Source: Oceanispirochaeta sp. (GTDB taxonomy: Bacteria > Spirochaetota > Spirochaetia > DSM-2461). Taken from it: a stretch of DNA of 64,000 nt. This document shows, one piece after another, positions 487 to 63,887 of this stretch (position 1 is its first letter; each line of letters opens with the position of its first letter). The stretch is from assembly GCA_963663385.2 (NCBI GenBank), contig CAXXXD010000002.1:800001-864000 (forward strand), in the 5' to 3' direction. The notes under the pieces are model-generated. The model was not told the DNA's origin and made no database searches. It worked only from the letters and a program-made list of their open reading frames with translations. Position numbers and translations under genes: made by a program.

Positions 487-1659
487 ATGAAAATAAAGTC
501 GCCGTTATTTTATATAAAACTGTTTTTACTAATCTTTTCATTCTTCCTTTTTTCATGTGAAGAGGCCGGTAACACAGCTCCCGATGAAGAACTGGAGGAG
601 ATCGTTGAGGAGGAATCAGCCTCCATCTTTTTTAGAAATCCACCGGCCAACGGATCGGCCCTGCCTTCGGAGTTTTCCTTGAATGCGGCCTATTCCATTC
701 CGGATTCCCTTTTTCAGGAAGGGCACAGTTATTCTATTAAGGCCTGTTTTGAAACGGCAGACGGTTGCTATGAGGCGGCAGATTTCCCTCTGACAGAACA
801 GTCTAAGACATCCTTCTCCATCAGTTTTGCCCTTACCAGTGAGGGGCTTCCTACCGATGCGGTTGTTCCTTTCAATCTGTCCCTTGCCCTGTACGATACA
901 ACGGTCGATCCGGCTGTAAAGCTCTGTTCCTCCTCTTCCATTCAGTATAATGGAGTGGCATACGGGAACTGGTATGAAATAGGCTCAAAAATTGTAATTA
1001 CCAATACGCAGATGTGGATCTACCATTACAAGGGGTCCGGCCGGGGGTATGTAGCTGATATGAGGGGCTCCATGGTAAGGTTGGGGCACAACAAATATCA
1101 GACCAATGTGGAACAGGAATTTGATTCTGATACGGGAGAGTGGGTGGATATTCCCGAAGAATATCTTTCCCGGTACGTTTCTGTTGACTACCTAAATGTA
1201 CAGAAAGACGGGCGTCTGCATATCTGTAACGAAGCGGGGGATATTACCCATAATATGCTCCCCTCTGAAAGTGGCTACACCTATGACGCGGATTATTCCG
1301 GTAAGTGGTGGACTGATGATCTGAAGATAGACCCGGCGGATAATGGATCGGTTCTGTGGTTTTCTGATAATTATTTTCAGCTACAGCAGGATGATCAGCA
1401 GAAAGGAGAAGATGCTTCTTTTCCTGTATATGAGATCGGAACAGTCTCAGATAATGCCGGAACCCTGACCCTGAATGTCACTCATGTGGGCAGCGGAGAG
1501 GGCTTTGAGGAAATCGATTCGGGAAAAGAATATACCTTTACCTATGTTTATGATCCTGATGCTGTACCTGATGAGACTCTCGTTCTGACGGGCGGTCCGT
1601 TTATTGACGGCGGTGCCACTGTTTTGAACTTTGACTTATCCAGTAAATATGAAAAATAG
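487..1659 (+). CDS. Uncharacterised acidic lipoprotein
   Basis: GGAG RBS before ATG 487; basic N-terminus, hydrophobic stretch and lipobox FLFS-C; long ORF followed by a terminator. Confidence 0.75.
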   Translation: MKIKSPLFYIKLFLLIFSFFLFSCEEAGNTAPDEELEEIVEEESASIFFRNPPANGSALPSEFSLNAAYSIPDSLFQEGHSYSIKACFETADGCYEAADFPLTEQSKTSFSISFALTSEGLPTDAVVPFNLSLALYDTTVDPAVKLCSSSSIQYNGVAYGNWYEIGSKIVITNTQMWIYHYKGSGRGYVADMRGSMVRLGHNKYQTNVEQEFDSDTGEWVDIPEEYLSRYVSVDYLNVQKDGRLHICNEAGDITHNMLPSESGYTYDADYSGKWWTDDLKIDPADNGSVLWFSDNYFQLQQDDQQKGEDASFPVYEIGTVSDNAGTLTLNVTHVGSGEGFEEIDSGKEYTFTYVYDPDAVPDETLVLTGGPFIDGGATVLNFDLSSKYEK

Positions 1660-1688
1660 AAAGCTCTTTTCAAGGAGGCTCAGTTTAT

Positions 1689-1714
1689 AAAACCGCTGAA
1701 TAGCGGTTTTTTTA
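1689..1714 (+). terminator. Rho-independent terminator
   Basis: AAAACCGCT-GAAT-AGCGGTTTT followed by a T run. Confidence 0.85.
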
Positions 1715-1849
1715 TGCCCGAATCCCTAGTATATTCACACTATTTTGAGAAAATCCCCTTTTCATATAAGAAAAAACCTTATAAGGTATAGAGTGTTAAA
1801 ATGACAAAATCACTTAAAGTGTCAAAATAAGACCAGTCAGGAGAGGGGA

Positions 1850-4800
1850 ATGGAACTTAAAACAATCAGAGAATATTTCAAGTATATGGTCACCGCCCGG
1901 GAATTGGATCTTCTGGAACAGAGTTATACGGGAAGGGGCGAAGCTTTCTTTCATGTTTCCGGTGCCGGTCATGAAGGTTCCTGTATTTTAAATAGTGTAT
2001 TGGAGGAGCAGGATTATCTCCATGTCCATTACAGGGATAAAGCCCTGATGATGGCCCGGGGTATGGATCCCGAAATGTTTTTTCTGTCCCTTTTTAATAA
2101 AGAAGGATCTCATTCCAAAGGACGGCAGATGGTCGCCCATATGAGCGACCCCGACCATAATATCCTCAGTATGGCCGGTCCTGTGGGAAACAGTAACCTC
2201 CATGCTGCAGGTGTGGCAGAAGCTGTAAAAGGGCAGAAAGGAAATCCCGTTGTTCTCAGTTCTCTGGGAGATGGAATGTCTCAGGAAGGGGATGTGCTCG
2301 AAGCCATAGCCCATGCGGCCCGGAAAGAACTTCCGGTTCTTTTTCTGGTTCAGGACAACGGTTTTGCTATTTCTACCAAAACAAAAGGGAATACCTTTTT
2401 TTCCCGGCCGGAAGGAGAGGCAGATTCGTTCTACGGCATACCCATTACCAGAATGGATGGCCGCTACCCCCAGAACCTTTACAGGCCCATGAAAGAGGTC
2501 GTGGACGGTATCCGGCAAACGGGGAAACCCGCCATCATTGTCATGTCCGTGGAACGCCTTCACAGTCATACCAATGCGGATGACCATAGAGTCTACCGGA
2601 CCGATGAAGAGATCAAAGCCCTTCATGAATCAAGTGATCCGGTGGATCAGCTGCACAGCTGGCTTCTGGATCAGGGTGTTTCGGAAGATGAACTGGCTGC
2701 AGAACGGCAAGAGATTATCGCCGATCTGAAAGAGAAGGCCCATAAAGCCCAGATTTCTCCCGAACCCGAGCCTGTCTATACAGCCAAAAAAGAGATCCCT
2801 GCTCATCTCACCGACCGGAAGCAGGAGTACCGCGGTACCCCCGGCAAGGAAGAACTGACCATGCTGGAAGCGATTAAGGAGACCCTCCGTTTTCACCTGG
2901 ACCGTAATCCCGCAGTAGAACTGTTCGGGGAGGACCTGGAAGATCCCAAGGGGGATGTATTCGGACTGACCAAAACCCTTTCGACCCAGTTCCCCGGACG
3001 GGTTGAAAACAGTCCTCTGGCGGAAGCCTCCATTGTCGGTCTGTCTATCGGGCGGGCTCTGGCGGGTAAACACCCTGTTGCTTTCCTCCAGTTTGCCGAC
3101 TTTCTGCCTATTGCCTTCAATCAGCTGTGGGCCGATGCAGGGAGCATGTACTGGCGAACCGAAGGCGGATGGGAGTGCCCCATGATCATTATGGTCTCCT
3201 GTGGTGCCTACAAGCCCGGAATCGGTCCCTTCCATGCCTCCAGTATGGAAGCCGTTGCCGCGCATATTCCCGGTATCGATGTGGTTATGCCCTCTACAGC
3301 AGGAGATGCTGCCGGTCTGCTCAACGCGGCCTTTGAATCGGGAAGACCAACCGTATATTTCTATCCTAAAGTTTGCCTCAACGATGTTCAGGCAAAAACA
3401 AGTTCTGATGTTTCCCGCCAGCTTGTTCCCCTGGGAATTGCCAGAAAAGTCAGCGAAGGCGAACACGTCACCTTTGTTTCATACGGCAATACAATAAGGC
3501 TGTGTCAGAAAGCGGCGGAAGCTCTGGGTAAACACAATATTACAAGTGATCTTATTGACCTTCGTTCCATCTCCCCCTGGGATCAGGAGATGGTTCTGGA
3601 ATCAGCCGAAAAAACAGGCCGGGTGATTATCGTTCATGAAGAGAATAAAACAGCCTCGATCTCTTCGGAAGTGGCTGCCTTTCTGGCGGAAAAATCCTCC
3701 CGAAAACTGAATATTAAACGAATTACCCGGGAAGATACCTATGTTCCCTGTAATTTTGATTGTCAGCTGGAAGTCCTTCCTTCCTACAAAGGAATTCTGG
3801 AAGCGGCTGCAGAGATGTTCGGCGGATCTGTCTGCTGGAAGAAGGAAGAGCTGGCTCAGGCCGGTTCTTTTACGGTCGAGATAATCGGTACCAGTCCGGC
3901 AGATGAAACGGCTACCGTTATTGAATGGAAGGTTGAAGCCGGTGATACCATTGAAGAGGGTGATCTGCTGGCTGAGATCGAAGCGGACAAGGCGGCAGCC
4001 GAGATGAAGTCCCCCGTTTCCGGTGTTGTCGAAGAGCTGATCCTGGAGGAGGGAGAGGCTGTCGCCATCGGCGCCCCCGCTCTCAAGGTAAAAACCAGCG
4101 AAACTGCCGCGGTCTCTCTCAAGCCTAAAACCAAAGAGGAGCCCGGGGAACCCGTTATCACCGGGATGACAGTTGTTTCAGAGACAAAAGATTCCGTTCC
4201 GGCAGCAGCCTCCGGAGACCGCCGCCCCTTCCTGCTGGATATTGCAGGTGTGCAGGGCAGCCGGGAAGTCCTGAATGATGAGATTATGGAATCCTGTTCC
4301 GGATGGAGTGAGGGCGAAATCCTGAAAATGACGGGAATCGAGAAGCGGAACTGGATTGGTGAAGGGGAGGATGTGGTCTCCCTGGCCAGTAAAGCCGCCA
4401 AAACTGTTCTTGAGAGAAACAGCCTTACCCTGGATGATCTCAGTCTGATTCTTGTTTCAAGCGGAACCCCCGGTACCATGACACCTTCCCTGGCAACACG
4501 GGTGCAATACAACTTAATGCCCGACGGCAAGAGGCAGCCGGCCTGTGCCGCTTTTGATATCAATGCCGCCTGTTCCGGTTACCTGTACGGTCTGCAGTCC
4601 TCCTGGGACTTTCTGAACAGCCGGCCCGACGGGCTTATTCTGCTTATTACGGCTGAGGTTCTGTCCCCCCTGGTGGATCCTTCCGATAAATCCACATCTG
4701 CTGTGTTTGGCGACGGCGCAACCGCCTCTCTGATCGCCGGAGTGGACCACGCTCTGAAGAACAGGGGGCGGGCCAGGATTTTCCGGCCCGTTACCGCAGC

Positions 4801-5191
4801 ATCGGGTGAACCCGGGGATATCCTGACGGTTCCCGCCAATCCGGCCGAGACTATCTATATGCATGGTCCCAAAGTGTATCTGGAAGCTGTTGCCAGCATG
4901 ATCTCTGTTCTGGATGATGCCTGTAAACAGGAGGAGAAGGGACTGGATGAACTGTCCCTGATTGTCCCGCATCAGGCTAATCAGAGGATTATCAATGCGG
5001 TACGTCAGAGACTGAAGATCGAAGAAGATCAGATATACAGCGAGATCCGCTACAGGGGAAATACTTCCTCCTGTACAATCCCGTTCTGTCTGGAATCCCT
5101 GATACAGGACGGGCGTTCCGGCCAGACCCTCGGGATGACAGCTTTCGGCGGCGGTTTCACCTCCGCCGGGGGACTGCTGGAAATCCTTTAA
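1850..5191 (+). CDS. Fusion protein: 2-oxoacid dehydrogenase E1alpha + E1beta + lipoyl domain + 3-oxoacyl-ACP synthase III (FabH-like)
   Basis: TPP motif GDG...QDN; E1beta GED...SPLAE...QFADF; lipoyl motif EADKA (K714); KASIII triad AACSG (C908), PHQAN (H1041), GNTS (N1071), C-terminal FGGGF. Confidence 0.93.
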   Translation: MELKTIREYFKYMVTARELDLLEQSYTGRGEAFFHVSGAGHEGSCILNSVLEEQDYLHVHYRDKALMMARGMDPEMFFLSLFNKEGSHSKGRQMVAHMSDPDHNILSMAGPVGNSNLHAAGVAEAVKGQKGNPVVLSSLGDGMSQEGDVLEAIAHAARKELPVLFLVQDNGFAISTKTKGNTFFSRPEGEADSFYGIPITRMDGRYPQNLYRPMKEVVDGIRQTGKPAIIVMSVERLHSHTNADDHRVYRTDEEIKALHESSDPVDQLHSWLLDQGVSEDELAAERQEIIADLKEKAHKAQISPEPEPVYTAKKEIPAHLTDRKQEYRGTPGKEELTMLEAIKETLRFHLDRNPAVELFGEDLEDPKGDVFGLTKTLSTQFPGRVENSPLAEASIVGLSIGRALAGKHPVAFLQFADFLPIAFNQLWADAGSMYWRTEGGWECPMIIMVSCGAYKPGIGPFHASSMEAVAAHIPGIDVVMPSTAGDAAGLLNAAFESGRPTVYFYPKVCLNDVQAKTSSDVSRQLVPLGIARKVSEGEHVTFVSYGNTIRLCQKAAEALGKHNITSDLIDLRSISPWDQEMVLESAEKTGRVIIVHEENKTASISSEVAAFLAEKSSRKLNIKRITREDTYVPCNFDCQLEVLPSYKGILEAAAEMFGGSVCWKKEELAQAGSFTVEIIGTSPADETATVIEWKVEAGDTIEEGDLLAEIEADKAAAEMKSPVSGVVEELILEEGEAVAIGAPALKVKTSETAAVSLKPKTKEEPGEPVITGMTVVSETKDSVPAAASGDRRPFLLDIAGVQGSREVLNDEIMESCSGWSEGEILKMTGIEKRNWIGEGEDVVSLASKAAKTVLERNSLTLDDLSLILVSSGTPGTMTPSLATRVQYNLMPDGKRQPACAAFDINAACSGYLYGLQSSWDFLNSRPDGLILLITAEVLSPLVDPSDKSTSAVFGDGATASLIAGVDHALKNRGRARIFRPVTAASGEPGDILTVPANPAETIYMHGPKVYLEAVASMISVLDDACKQEEKGLDELSLIVPHQANQRIINAVRQRLKIEEDQIYSEIRYRGNTSSCTIPFCLESLIQDGRSGQTLGMTAFGGGFTSAGGLLEIL

Positions 5192-5211
5192 TAACGAACT
5201 CCCTCTCCCGG

Positions 5212-5446
5212 CCCCTCTCAATCTCCCCAAAGGGGAGACATCAGTTTGATTTCCCTCCCTTGGAGGGATTAAGGGAGGCTGGAGAGGGCGGATGCATCCC
5301 CGAGCAGTAAACGTAGTTTACGACCAGGGGAATCAAAGGGTGAGGGTTTACCGGACCCCTCTCAGTCTCCCCAGGGGGGAGAAGTCAATTCGGTTTCCCC
5401 TCCTTTGGAGGGGATCAAGGGGAGGCCGGGAATCAAAGGGTGAGGG
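5212..5446. repeat. Two imperfect ~70-bp palindromic REP-like units plus a duplicated 19-mer
   Basis: Units at 5212-5282 and 5356-5429 (CCCCTCTCA-TCTCCCC..GGGGAGA...TTTCCC..TTGGAGGG..T.AAGGG..GG); GGGAATCAAAGGGTGAGGG at 5328-5346 and 5428-5446. Confidence 0.8.
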
Positions 5447-5511
5447 GGAGGTTCCGGAAGATACAATTGATGGGTTGTACTTGCTCCGGATACCCGAGCG
5501 GAGTCGAGAGG

Positions 5512-6579
5512 CTAGTCCTTCACCCGTCCCAGACCAAGCATTTTCAGCATCCATCTGGGAAGGGCCTTCTCCGGATCCCTTTTCTGCAGGTTCAGATACC
5601 AGTTCCACTTTTTCAAAATGGGGATCTTGTGGGTCTCCACAAATTCGATCAGGGTACCGTCCGGATCTTCTATATAGGTAAAACGTCCGGCCGCCTCTCC
5701 CATATCAAAAGAGTTCCTGCTGTCCACTGTAAAAGGGTAGCCCATGGCATTCAGTTTTTCTCCCAGACCGTCCATATTATAAATATCAAAGCAGAGATGG
5801 ATAAAACCGGCGTCTCCCCAGTAGCGGCCTTCGAATACTTTCCCAGGAGCTCGGTCCAGGCTCTGTATCAGTTCTATGCTGCTGTAGCCGAACATCTCCG
5901 CAAAAGCCCCTTTCCTGGGTTCCGTGTGGGTCAGAAGAACTCTCCGGAATGTCCCGTCTCCACCGGGAAGGGCTGCAAGATCCTTAAAACAACCGGTCTG
6001 ATCGTAGGCAATAACCGGAAAACCCAGGGCTTCCCGATAGAGAGGCAGGACCTTGTCTATATCGCCGACCCCTACGCTGGCGCCGCAGGGACCGCCGGTC
6101 AAGCCGGGTTTTCCGTAAAAGTCGTCTCTTTGAGTCTGGACAATATCAAAAATGTTCCCGAAGGGATCCCGGACAAAGAAGTGCTCCATCCCTGCAGGAT
6201 CCTTCATAATGCCGCCCGGCAGGTCCAGTCCTTCATCACTGTAAAAGGCATAGGTCCTTTTTACATCGGGTGATTTGATTTTTCCTGTAAGAATGCCCAG
6301 GTCTCCGATCTTCAGAGGCTCCGCTGGAGAGGCTGTTTTCCGGCTGGTATACTGCCATATTTCAAAACCGCTCCCGCCAGTCAGGTTCAAAGCCAGAACC
6401 GCATCCCGCCCCTGCACCTTGTTACCCGTATACTGTGTCATCAAAGGGGCATCCGCTGCCTCCTGAAAGACAGGAATATCCATTCCAAAGTATTTTCTGT
6501 ACCACTCCCAGGCTTTGTCCCGGTCGGCTACTCCAATCCCAAGCTGCTGAATCCCGCTGATTATAATGCTCATATTCAT
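5512..6579 (-). CDS. Two-domain VOC (glyoxalase/bleomycin resistance) family protein
   Basis: QQLGIGV, FFVRDPFGNIFD, HLCF and YIEDPDGTLIEF motifs in duplicated VOC modules. Confidence 0.85.
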   Translation of the reverse strand: MNMSIIISGIQQLGIGVADRDKAWEWYRKYFGMDIPVFQEAADAPLMTQYTGNKVQGRDAVLALNLTGGSGFEIWQYTSRKTASPAEPLKIGDLGILTGKIKSPDVKRTYAFYSDEGLDLPGGIMKDPAGMEHFFVRDPFGNIFDIVQTQRDDFYGKPGLTGGPCGASVGVGDIDKVLPLYREALGFPVIAYDQTGCFKDLAALPGGDGTFRRVLLTHTEPRKGAFAEMFGYSSIELIQSLDRAPGKVFEGRYWGDAGFIHLCFDIYNMDGLGEKLNAMGYPFTVDSRNSFDMGEAAGRFTYIEDPDGTLIEFVETHKIPILKKWNWYLNLQKRDPEKALPRWMLKMLGLGRVKD

Positions 6580-61172: not shown

Positions 61173-62585
61173 CTATTTCCGGGGAGGCATCAGGTCTGTA
61201 ATGGTACCCTCTGCCATTTCCGCAGCCAGAGCAAATGTCTCGGCCAGGGTGGGGTGGGCGTGGATGGTCAGAGCGACATCTTCCAGATCACTGCCCATCT
61301 CGACAGCCAGATTGGCTTCTGCAATCAGTTCCCCTGCGTTGTTCCCTGTTATACCGGCGCCCAGAATCCGTTTCGTTTCCGGATCATAGAGTACTTTGGT
61401 GGTCCCTTCGTTCCGTCCGTTGCTTAAAGACCGGCCGCTGGCAGCCCAGGGAAATACGCCTTTTTCGAAGGAGATATTCCTTTCGGCCGCTTCTTTTTCT
61501 GTCAGTCCCGTCCAGGCTATTTCCGGATCCGTATAGGCGACGCTGGGGATACTGACCGGAGAAAAATCGGAAGCTTCCCCTCCGATAACTTCGGCGGCAA
61601 CCTTTCCTTCAGCGACGGCTTTATGGGCAAGCATGGGCTGTCCAGTTGCGTCTCCGATGGCATATATATGAGAAAGAGCGGTCTGCCGTTTCTCATTGAC
61701 GGGAATAAATCCCTTTTCATCCGGTTCCAGTCCCAGCGCATCCAGACCGATATCATCCGTATTGGGCCTGCGGCCTATGCTTATCAGGATACGGTCGTAG
61801 GTCTCGCTTTCAGGCGCTTTTTTCCCTTCCATGCTGACAATAAGGCCTTCCGGAGAAGGTTCCACTTTCGTTACCCTGGTACCTGTATAAACAGCTCTGG
61901 TAACTTTTTTCAGCATCCTTGCCAGGGGCTTTACCAGATCGGCATCCGCCTGGGGGATAATCTGGTCCATCAGTTCCACAACAGTTACTTCCGAACCGAA
62001 GGAGCCGTAAACCGTAGCCATTTCCAGTCCGATTATGCCTCCGCCGACAATCAGCAGTTTTCCGGGGATCTCTTCCATTTTCAGGGCATCAGCCGAATCC
62101 ATAACCCGGGGATCGTCATAGGGGAAGCCGGGCAGTTCCACAACCCTGGATCCCGAGGCGATAATGGCATTTTTAAAAGTAACGGCAGTTTCTTCTTCCC
62201 CGGATGTCTCCAGAGTATTCGGTCCTGTAAACCGGCCCGTCCCTTTTATGATCCGTACTTTTCTCTGCCTGGCCAATCCGGCCAGCCCTTTGGTCAGGGA
62301 CCCGACCACTCTGTCTTTATGCCCCCTGATCCCTTCAAGGTCAAACTGCGGCTCCCCGAAGCTGATCCCCGATTTCCCGGCTTCTTCCGCTTCCCTGACG
62401 ATGGAAGCCAGGTGGAGCAGTGACTTGGAGGGGATGCATCCTTCATTAAGGCAAACCCCTCCCAGGGTATCCCGTTTTTCTACAAGCGCCACGCTCTGTC
62501 CCAGGTCCGCCGCACGGAAAGCCGCCGTATATCCTCCGGGACCGCCTCCCAGGACCAGAGTGTCTATATTAATGTTTTCAGTCAT
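61173..62585 (-). CDS. lpdA: Dihydrolipoamide dehydrogenase (E3)
   Basis: GGGPGGY, GGVCLNEGCIPSK, GGGIIGLE, MLAHKA, HAHPTLAE. Confidence 0.97.
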   Translation of the reverse strand: MTENINIDTLVLGGGPGGYTAAFRAADLGQSVALVEKRDTLGGVCLNEGCIPSKSLLHLASIVREAEEAGKSGISFGEPQFDLEGIRGHKDRVVGSLTKGLAGLARQRKVRIIKGTGRFTGPNTLETSGEEETAVTFKNAIIASGSRVVELPGFPYDDPRVMDSADALKMEEIPGKLLIVGGGIIGLEMATVYGSFGSEVTVVELMDQIIPQADADLVKPLARMLKKVTRAVYTGTRVTKVEPSPEGLIVSMEGKKAPESETYDRILISIGRRPNTDDIGLDALGLEPDEKGFIPVNEKRQTALSHIYAIGDATGQPMLAHKAVAEGKVAAEVIGGEASDFSPVSIPSVAYTDPEIAWTGLTEKEAAERNISFEKGVFPWAASGRSLSNGRNEGTTKVLYDPETKRILGAGITGNNAGELIAEANLAVEMGSDLEDVALTIHAHPTLAETFALAAEMAEGTITDLMPPRK

Positions 62586-62615: not shown

Positions 62616-63887
62616 TTATAGCAGTATTTTTTTCATATCTTCCAGTAATTCTGCTAAATATCTGGTAAATCTTGCCGCCATGGCACCGTCTATCACCCTA
62701 TGGTCATAAGACAGGCTCAGGGGGAGTATCATCCGGGGGAGAAATTCCCCGTCCTGCCAGACCGGCTGCCTTCTGGATCGGGCCATTCCCAGTATGGCTA
62801 CCTCGGGAGGGTTAATAATAGGAGTAAACCCTGTTCCTCCGATACCGCCCAGATTGGATATGGAGATACCTGCTCCCTCCAGATCCCCGGGAGTCAGATC
62901 TCCATTCCGCCCTTTTCCCGCCAGGTCATTTATATCCCGGACAATTTCAGTCAGGGACTTGGTATCCACATTTTTAATGACAGGAACAAGAAGTCCCTGA
63001 GGGGTATCCACGGCAATGCCTATATTATAGTACTTCCGGAGGATAAGGGAACCCGAACTCCTGTCCAGCACAGCATTAAACCGGGGGAACTCTTCAACAG
63101 CCTTATAGAGTGCTTTCACCATAAAAGCCAGTGAACTGAACTTTACTCCATGGGTTCCCTTTCCATTCAGTTCATCTCGCCATATTTCCAGATTGGTTAT
63201 ATCCGCTTCATCAAAGTGTGTCACATGGGGGATATTCACCCAGCTGGCATGAAGGCGTGATGAGGAGATTTTCTGAATGCGGGTCAACTCTTCAAAAGCC
63301 ACCGGCCCGAAGCGGGAGGGATCTGTTTCGGGCAGAGAGGGCAGGCTTGCAGAACCCGGGGGATTTTCAAGAGCCTTTCTCACAAAGTCCTGAACATCTT
63401 CTCTGCGAACCCTTCCTTTTGGCCCTGTCCCCTGGATAAGGTTAAGATCAGCTCCCAGTTCTCTGGCAAAATGCCGGATAGAGGGGGAGGCGTGGATACC
63501 GGGGGAAGAGGGCGGTTTGTCAGGCGGTTTTATATCCTTTGATGTCTGTTCTCTCTCTGCCTGTTCTGTTTCTGCCGTACTCTCCCCGGGGATCTCTCCT
63601 GTATCCGCTGTTTCTTCCGCTTCCTTTGTCTCTTCTTTCTTCTCTTCCATGCTGACCAGGCAGATCAAATCTCCGCTTTTCAGCATATCCCCCTCTTTCA
63701 CCTTCACTTCCCGGACAGTCCCGTCCAGAGGGGAGGGGATCTCTATAACAGCCTTATCGCTTTCCAGTGACAGAAGGGGCTCTTCTTTTTGTATCTTTTT
63801 TCCTGAACGGATAAACAGTTCTCCCACCGGAACGGCTTCGGAACTTCCCAGGTCCGGAACGTGTATTTCCTGTAAATTATTTGCCAT
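62616..63887 (-). CDS. aceF: Dihydrolipoamide acetyltransferase (PDH E2), single lipoyl domain
   Basis: LESDKA lipoyl site, HASPSIR subunit-binding domain, IPHVT, SLSYDHRVIDGA. Confidence 0.93.
   Translation of the reverse strand: MANNLQEIHVPDLGSSEAVPVGELFIRSGKKIQKEEPLLSLESDKAVIEIPSPLDGTVREVKVKEGDMLKSGDLICLVSMEEKKEETKEAEETADTGEIPGESTAETEQAEREQTSKDIKPPDKPPSSPGIHASPSIRHFARELGADLNLIQGTGPKGRVRREDVQDFVRKALENPPGSASLPSLPETDPSRFGPVAFEELTRIQKISSSRLHASWVNIPHVTHFDEADITNLEIWRDELNGKGTHGVKFSSLAFMVKALYKAVEEFPRFNAVLDRSSGSLILRKYYNIGIAVDTPQGLLVPVIKNVDTKSLTEIVRDINDLAGKGRNGDLTPGDLEGAGISISNLGGIGGTGFTPIINPPEVAILGMARSRRQPVWQDGEFLPRMILPLSLSYDHRVIDGAMAARFTRYLAELLEDMKKILL

Follow-up and report, generated by a model that had tools for sequence, protein, structure and literature searches.

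We describe here a gene in a 64,000-nucleotide (nt) stretch of Oceanispirochaeta sp. contig CAXXXD010000002.1, hereafter the window, that joins in a single reading frame the decarboxylating and lipoyl parts of a 2-oxoacid dehydrogenase complex to a condensing enzyme of fatty-acid synthesis. The gene (P0001; positions 1850..5191, + strand, as are all the features listed in this paragraph) encodes 1113 amino acids without interruption. An E1α module (residues 12-308; 1883..2773; Pfam E1_dh, E 4.6e-43, 147.7 bits with a cut-off of 22) carries the thiamine diphosphate (TPP) motif G140-D-G...N170 at nt 2267-2359 and is followed by an E1β module (2852..3760) composed of Transket_pyr (335-507) and Transketolase_C (531-637) with H462. 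Next comes a lipoyl domain (3866..4093) whose strands span residues 673-748 in the structural model and which matches Pfam Biotin_lipoyl at 688-743 with 57.2 bits (cut-off 22.1); the codon of its lipoyl lysine, K714 in the motif EADKAA, lies at 3989-3991. A linker of residues 749-793 (4094..4228), delimited by the AlphaFold2 model and the alignment, leads to a FabH-type β-ketoacyl-acyl carrier protein synthase III (KASIII) domain covering residues 794-1113 (4229..5188), where ACP_syn_III matches 902-964 and ACP_syn_III_C 1028-1111. The codons of its catalytic triad are found at 4571-4573 (C908), 4970-4972 (H1041) and 5060-5062 (N1071). All six Pfam families score above their curated cut-offs and, together with the alignments, confirm the uninterrupted frame, the four parts, K714 and the triad as the initial annotation had read them from the sequence.

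The protein has no Pfam match to the 2-oxoacid_dh family, the core of the acyltransferase component (E2), at E<=0.01, and contains no DHRxxDG or HxxxDG string; the earlier claim that it lacks an E2 core thus stands. The accompanying statement that there is none next to it is right for the flanking genes, which are unrelated to the fusion (a lipoprotein, a VOC-family protein, Dus and TatD), and wrong for the window, which has an E2 core gene at 62616-63887. The AlphaFold2 model, built on a 54-sequence alignment, has a mean predicted local distance difference test score (pLDDT) of 91.3 and a predicted template-modelling score (pTM) of 0.71, and its sole disordered stretch (residues 777-788) falls in the lipoyl-KASIII linker. 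The same linker contains the motif KPxTKEEPGEPVITG at about residues 757-771 (window 4118-4162) with a short strand predicted at 767-771, which may be a candidate docking element. The general form of the motif, KPxTRExPGxPxI, is conserved in the spirochaete-type subgroup only, and a role as universal docking peptide for the dihydrolipoamide dehydrogenase component (E3) is unsupported given this limited conservation. In the E2-core and thioesterase variants described below, homology to the fusion runs through the linker motif, up to residues 770-780.

Conservation was counted in 54 aligned fusions that are 35-84% identical to this protein. G140 and N170 of the TPP motif, H240 of E1α and H462 of E1β are each present in 54/54. 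H240, within the string 'HSHTNADD', corresponds in the alignment to the second His of 'ighhstsdd' in the α chain of human branched-chain 2-oxoacid dehydrogenase, and H462 to the His of 'hhsqs', 'lhsds' or 'yhsqs' in solved E1β chains; we take their equivalents to be the active-site histidines for reductive acylation of the lipoyl group. K714 is a Lys in 53 of the 54, with D713 and A715 each kept in 40. In the KASIII part, C908 and N1071 are invariant and H1041 is found in 53/54; the three residues align with Cys112, His244 and Asn274 of Escherichia coli FabH. The equivalent of Asn247 is also kept, and R1046 (Arg in 50/54, Lys in 3/54) aligns with Arg249 of the E. coli enzyme, which is presumably the arginine on which acyl carrier protein (ACP) docks. 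Because the catalytic residues are conserved throughout the 54 fusions, all three modules are under selection as working enzymes. With its lipoyl-type DKA motif, K714 is the predicted lipoylation site, and lipoylation machinery is encoded in the genome: LipA (389 bits, cut-off 310) and three genes of the BPL_LplA_LipB family.

The primer entrance of the KASIII domain differs from that of ordinary FabH. In E. coli FabH-coenzyme A (CoA) structures, the adenine ring is described as stacked between Trp32 and Arg151 and hydrogen-bonded to Thr28 (PMC4606726). The positions of this pocket were mapped by a HMMER alignment to 1HN9 and by aligning the KASIII domains of the 54 fusions in MAFFT with 21 standalone FabHs, one from the genome itself and the others from 20 of the remaining 23 genomes in the order. 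All 21 standalone enzymes have Thr, Trp and Arg at the positions of Thr28, Trp32 and Arg151, compared with 1/54, 2/54 and 1/54 fusions, respectively. The residues here are W819, E823 and K947; across the fusions the Trp32 position is mostly Asp or Glu and the Arg151 position mostly Phe, Pro or Lys. A loop near the tunnel mouth is also about 15 residues shorter in the fusions. Phe87, presumably the residue that caps the FabH primer pocket, is likewise conserved in 21/21 standalone enzymes and in none of the 54 fusions, 37 of which have Thr (T878 here). By analogy with other FabHs, this change suggests a roomier primer pocket. As judged from these alignments, then, the site for the CoA adenine is gone from the fusion KASIII while the triad and the Arg249-equivalent arginine are kept. 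Loss of the nucleotide-binding part with retention of the catalytic machinery is what would be expected if the primer no longer comes on CoA.

The initial annotation had proposed a domain-architecture search to establish the distribution. When the 120 best homologue clusters were examined, 118 showed the full six-family architecture, and the other two carry the label partial in their source. The family is large: a library clustered at 50% identity yielded 38 full-length fusions, with 36-55% identity, among its 150 best representatives. A scan of one genome per species gave 551 relatives, and the best 80 of these were analysed as loci: 40 in Spirochaetota, 23 in Planctomycetota, 6 in Verrucomicrobiota, 2 in Armatimonadota, 1 in Nitrospirales, 3 in Betaproteobacteria and 5 in Alphaproteobacteria, the last including Rhizobium lusitanum. 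A homologue within the genus Oceanispirochaeta is 72% identical. A single genus accounts for all occurrences of the fusion in the order: its 10 genomes all have the gene (9 full-length copies and one cut by a contig end), and the count in the four other genera is 0/14 genomes.

The position occupied by KASIII can be filled in other ways. Pfam scans of unusual relatives revealed ten in which the E1αβ-lipoyl scaffold continues into an E2 core (for example P0153, P0177, P0182 and P0192). In P0200 the scaffold is followed by an E2 core and an ACP domain, and in P0183, a polyketide synthase/nonribosomal peptide synthetase (PKS/NRPS) protein, by an E2 core, ACP, KS, MT, C and A domains. P0152 has a thioesterase instead. 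P0136, a protein of 1942 amino acids, has the scaffold, KASIII and then a ketoreductase (KR) domain, plus some 400 residues without assigned nature. In P0159 and P0166 only E1β, lipoyl domain and KASIII are fused, with a Met start at the E1β boundary, and E1α is separate. A further relative, P0150, has a C-terminal region of about 240 residues to which no family is assigned. In a FastTree phylogeny of the E1 part (91 rows, midpoint-rooted for drawing only, so that no direction of exchange is given), the 54 KASIII forms all group in a single clade of 59 rows (support 91). One E2-core form belongs to this clade as well, as do the thioesterase and KASIII-KR forms, and its sister consists of two E2-core forms (support 99). 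Judged by these comparisons, the C-terminal module of the E1-lipoyl scaffold is apparently interchangeable between KASIII, E2 core and thioesterase, and KASIII fills the slot that the E2 core holds in close relatives. The original proposal that KASIII sits at the E2-core position is thus borne out by the E1 tree and by the module exchange.

The gene for the E2 within the window (62616..63887, − strand) encodes an AceF-like protein of 423 amino acids with a lipoyl domain, an E3-binding domain and a 2-oxoacid_dh core. It adjoins the gene of a 470-residue dihydrolipoamide dehydrogenase (Lpd; 61173..62585, − strand), which closes an aceE-aceF-lpd operon. An 888-residue AceE-type E1 just past the window end (G000:C2:863898-866564) completes this pyruvate dehydrogenase (PDH) operon of E. 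coli type, to which the AceF-like E2 belongs, and not to the fusion system. A second 2-oxoacid dehydrogenase set on contig C4 (L007:8042-13228) comprises E2, E3 and then a fused E1αβ of 819 amino acids with an N-terminal extension of about 165 residues; the E1 of the fusion is distant from this other E1αβ on the tree. The genome also has a canonical FabH in an operon for type II fatty-acid synthesis with FabD, FabG, FabF, FabZ/A and FabV. The initial annotation had overlooked all three: the E2 beside the LpdA that it cited, the second E2-E3-E1αβ cluster and the canonical FabH. Separately, contig C3 (L010:8839-12127) carries a three-gene set with a ScyA-related TPP enzyme of 550 amino acids, a 215-residue protein with a weak ScyC-like match and a KASIII-like protein with a Cys-Asn-Asn triad in which the His is replaced; this set may belong to an acyloin-type or other non-fatty-acid condensation pathway.

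Across the order an E2 core is present in 22/24 genomes and LipA in 23/24 with no pattern relative to the fusion, and every fusion-carrying genome of the order also has E2 cores. An exception among the carriers is a member of the Nitrospirales (L072/G026) with a chromosome-level assembly of 3.84 Mb and an intact fusion of 1130 amino acids. The E2 core family has 0 matches on this chromosome. Above the cut-off, Biotin_lipoyl matches the fusion and two probable biotin carriers; GcvH directly adjoins a bona fide Lpd (508 bits; G026:C1:469059-470809), and GcvH and the fusion appear to be the only lipoyl proteins. As there is no E2 core on the chromosome, the fusion there cannot depend on E2, and Lpd is available; E2 is thus dispensable in at least one carrier. 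An E2 core was also not matched in the Verrucomicrobia metagenome-assembled genome (MAG) L068, the completeness of which is unstated.

As to what the fusion would act upon, its E1α scores higher with the branched-chain E1α of human (115.6 bits) and Thermus (108.4 bits) than with PDH E1α chains (76-80 bits), and the NCBIfam PDH models match the fusion E1 below their cut-offs. A branched-chain substrate is weakly indicated by sequence similarity. The dominant fatty acids given for Oceanispirochaeta piezotolerans are iso-C13:0, C14:0, iso-C15:0 and C16:0 (PMC11129491), and two primer classes in this species would fit two initiators. The fusion would probably supply primers that exceed acetyl in size, such as the branched ones that derive from 2-oxoacids and start iso fatty acids. 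A 3-oxoacyl thioester is the probable product: P0136 has a KR domain fused behind KASIII, and in 6/80 loci a gene of the short-chain dehydrogenase/reductase (SDR) family lies on the same strand no more than 1.2 kb after the fusion.

We consider it probable, if far from certain, that the fusion works in type II fatty-acid synthesis as a self-contained module for initiation, which would be fed by 2-oxoacids and operate independently of CoA. All steps of the following scheme are drawn from sequence. The fused E1α-E1β would decarboxylate a 2-oxoacid on TPP and reductively acylate the lipoyl group on K714 of the same chain. The arm would then swing to the KASIII domain, where the acyl group would pass by thiol exchange to Cys908 without the help of an E2 core and without free acyl-CoA. 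KASIII, using His1041 and Asn1071, would condense the acyl group with malonyl-ACP to a 3-oxoacyl-ACP primer, and a cellular dihydrolipoamide dehydrogenase would re-oxidise the arm; the genome has two candidates for this last step, one of them at 61173-62585. KASIII enzymes are homodimers, and the fused E1αβ should pair like E1 heterotetramers, so that the whole protein could be a simple homodimer. A predicted complex of two KASIII domains and a lipoyl domain gave an ipSAE interface score of 0.00, which, having been obtained without controls, weighs neither for nor against binding. The fusion would most likely supply a second primer class beside the ordinary FabH. The wider proposal, a family of CoA-independent initiators in at least six bacterial lineages, each a mini dehydrogenase complex with a KASIII remodelled to receive the lipoyl domain, we hold to be an evenly balanced one.

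A number of observations pull in the other direction. With two complete E1/E2/E3 sets and a canonical FabH, the genome has an acyl-CoA route available, and an E2 acting in trans on the fusion is conceivable here; an E2 core is also present in 29 of the 31 carriers tested outside the order. No E3_binding match, by which Lpd might be recruited, was found in the fusion at E<=0.01, and both separate E2 proteins of the genome carry this domain. At the altered CoA site, 27/54 fusions carry a Trp at a distance of four residues on the N-terminal side of the Trp32 position (W819 here); one helical turn away and possibly on the same helix face, this residue might still contact a nucleotide. The KASIII part stays below the NCBIfam FabH cut-offs (NF006829, 227.5 versus 249; TIGR00747, 190.1 versus 292.1), which the canonical FabH of the genome exceeds with 403.5 and 359.7 bits. 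Regarding the substrate, the lowest score of the E1α is that with the branched-chain E1α of Pseudomonas putida (48.8 bits), and E1β ranks PDH and branched-chain chains alike. The neighbourhoods of the 80 loci carry little information and mostly reflect lineage-specific housekeeping synteny (aconitase in 23, and also NeuB, SerRS and, in Planctomycetota, EpmB). One neighbour in the Planctomycetota, a radical S-adenosylmethionine (SAM) protein, was considered as a lipoyl synthase and rejected, the gene being EpmB. Finally, a standalone KASIII occurs in 24/24 genomes of the order, including all 10 of the fusion-bearing genus, and in 5/5 carriers checked from other lineages. Since every carrier checked has one, the fusion is not needed for initiation as such, and retention of the ordinary FabH makes it an accessory starter and therefore not the only primer route of the cell. 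The original suggestion of a direct transfer from lipoyl arm to KASIII is thereby upheld in part: the lost adenine pocket, the module swap and the E2-free Nitrospirales carrier speak for it, and the role as primer factory shrinks to an accessory one.

These observations have to be set against other explanations of the same architecture. The fusion might provide proximity only, a separate E2 (the AceF-like protein or that of contig C4) making acyl-CoA in trans from the fused lipoyl group for use by the KASIII domain. The two E2 cores and two Lpd genes of this genome, and the E2 cores of the 29 other carriers, would permit this. It would however be difficult to reconcile with the loss of the adenine-binding residues in 52-53 of the 54 fusions, when all 21 ordinary FabHs have kept them, or with a Nitrospirales chromosome that has the fusion without an E2 core; the fusion also has no E2-binding or E3-binding domain. 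We think such an arrangement unlikely. To the same low degree we credit a KASIII that would act as a transacylase only, in place of E2, handing the lipoyl-borne acyl group to holo-ACP or CoA with no condensation step and leaving elongation to other enzymes. KASIII-like acyltransferases such as CerJ and DpsC exist, and it is acyltransferase or thioesterase modules that otherwise hold the C-terminal position of the scaffold. The His and Asn of condensing KASIII enzymes, however, serve to decarboxylate malonyl-ACP, and both are kept (H1041 in 53/54 fusions, N1071 in 54/54), while the KR domain or SDR gene found after KASIII in some relatives fits a 3-oxo product.

A condensation that serves another end, in which the lipoyl-borne acyl group would react with malonyl-CoA or a second acyl chain to yield a specialised lipid or secondary metabolite, seems to us slightly less likely still. 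It would account for the related scaffolds in PKS/NRPS lines (P0183, P0200), for the patchy distribution with a single genus in the order, and for the constant presence of an ordinary FabH. Against it, housekeeping genes surround the gene in the 80 loci, without a biosynthetic cluster, the Arg249-aligned arginine is conserved and the CoA-adenine pocket is lost. That the fusion is an assembly artefact or a decaying, non-functional gene we regard as negligible in probability, and nothing was found in its favour. Positions 1700-5239 of the window are covered with 0 differences by single contigs of 16729 and 10207 nt from two runs of two studies, the full architecture recurs in the 118 homologue clusters, and the catalytic residues remain invariant at identities of 35-84%. 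The artefact left open in the initial annotation is excluded by these spanning contigs and by the same architecture in independent assemblies, whole chromosomes among them.

The closest known pathway is the Bkd complex (E1α2β2/E2/E3) with FabH, which primes iso and anteiso fatty acids in Bacillus and Staphylococcus. Both have a heterotetramer-type TPP-dependent E1 with its His residues, a lipoyl-lysine arm and a Cys-His-Asn KASIII, and the overall conversion of a 2-oxoacid to 3-oxoacyl-ACP would be the same as that predicted for the fusion. In contrast to Bkd and FabH, the fusion is on one chain, has no E2 core, E3-binding domain or multimeric core, and has a KASIII without the CoA-adenine pocket, so that acyl-CoA is probably not an intermediate. 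Among solved structures the KASIII domain best matches FabH (E. coli 1HN9/1EBL, Aquifex 2EBD, Vibrio 4NHD and Neisseria 4RYB, with E values of 1e-37 to 1e-41), but it differs from the ordinary enzyme in its place behind a lipoyl domain, in the replaced equivalents of Thr28, Trp32, Arg151 and Phe87 and in one shorter loop. The single-chain E1α-E1β-lipoyl-E2core proteins (P0153, P0177, P0182, P0192) have the same scaffold and, on the E1 tree, branch either as sister to the KASIII clade or within it; unlike the fusion, they end in an ordinary CoA-forming E2 core.

Mechanistically, the closest precedent would be QncN/QncL/QncM (and SclQ1-4), described as a thiamine diphosphate-dependent enzyme, a lipoyl domain and an E2-like acyltransferase through which an ACP is charged with a C2 unit for NRPS assembly (PMC6335953). 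As in the scheme proposed here, the lipoyl arm in that account takes an acyl group derived from the thiamine cofactor to a carrier-protein pathway and not to CoA. The Qnc system as described there differs in having an E2-type acyltransferase, a dedicated ACP and a ketose phosphate substrate. Neither an E2-like acyltransferase domain nor a dedicated ACP is present in the fusion or beside it, and the relatives P0200 and P0183 have both. Other FabH-independent modes of initiation involve the malonyl-ACP decarboxylase MadA/YiiD and FabB of Pseudomonas putida (PMC8666670, PMC10869286); these start from malonyl-ACP or acetyl-CoA, and none of them is known to involve a 2-oxoacid, TPP or lipoate. Our literature searches, which did not cover most subscription journals, found no description of this architecture or of a lipoyl arm feeding a condensing enzyme.

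If the scheme is true, it would constitute a new initiation route for type II fatty-acid synthesis and imply that a lipoyl arm can serve as primer donor to a condensing enzyme of the thiolase fold. To our knowledge, such a donor is not known for enzymes of this fold. It would also mean that a 24- or 60-subunit E2 core is not needed in order to use an E1-lipoyl pair, and that amino-acid or 2-oxoacid pools could be tied directly to membrane lipid composition. With a single gene as a tool, engineered strains might then be made to produce branched or odd primers from 2-oxoacids without recourse to acyl-CoA pools. Some of the carriers, such as Rhizobium lusitanum and Oceanispirochaeta, are cultivable and amenable to genetics.

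At the 3′ side of the gene, a Rfam scan and a promoter/terminator scan of positions 1400-5700 gave nothing above chance except a hairpin repeat after the stop codon. This element, a palindrome resembling repetitive extragenic palindromic (REP) sequences, lies at 5210..5285 just 3′ of the fusion stop codon and folds into a long hairpin of −50 kcal/mol that could serve as a terminator. The genome contains about 18 more copies of the repeat, complete or partial, and contigs from public runs break at 5210-5285.

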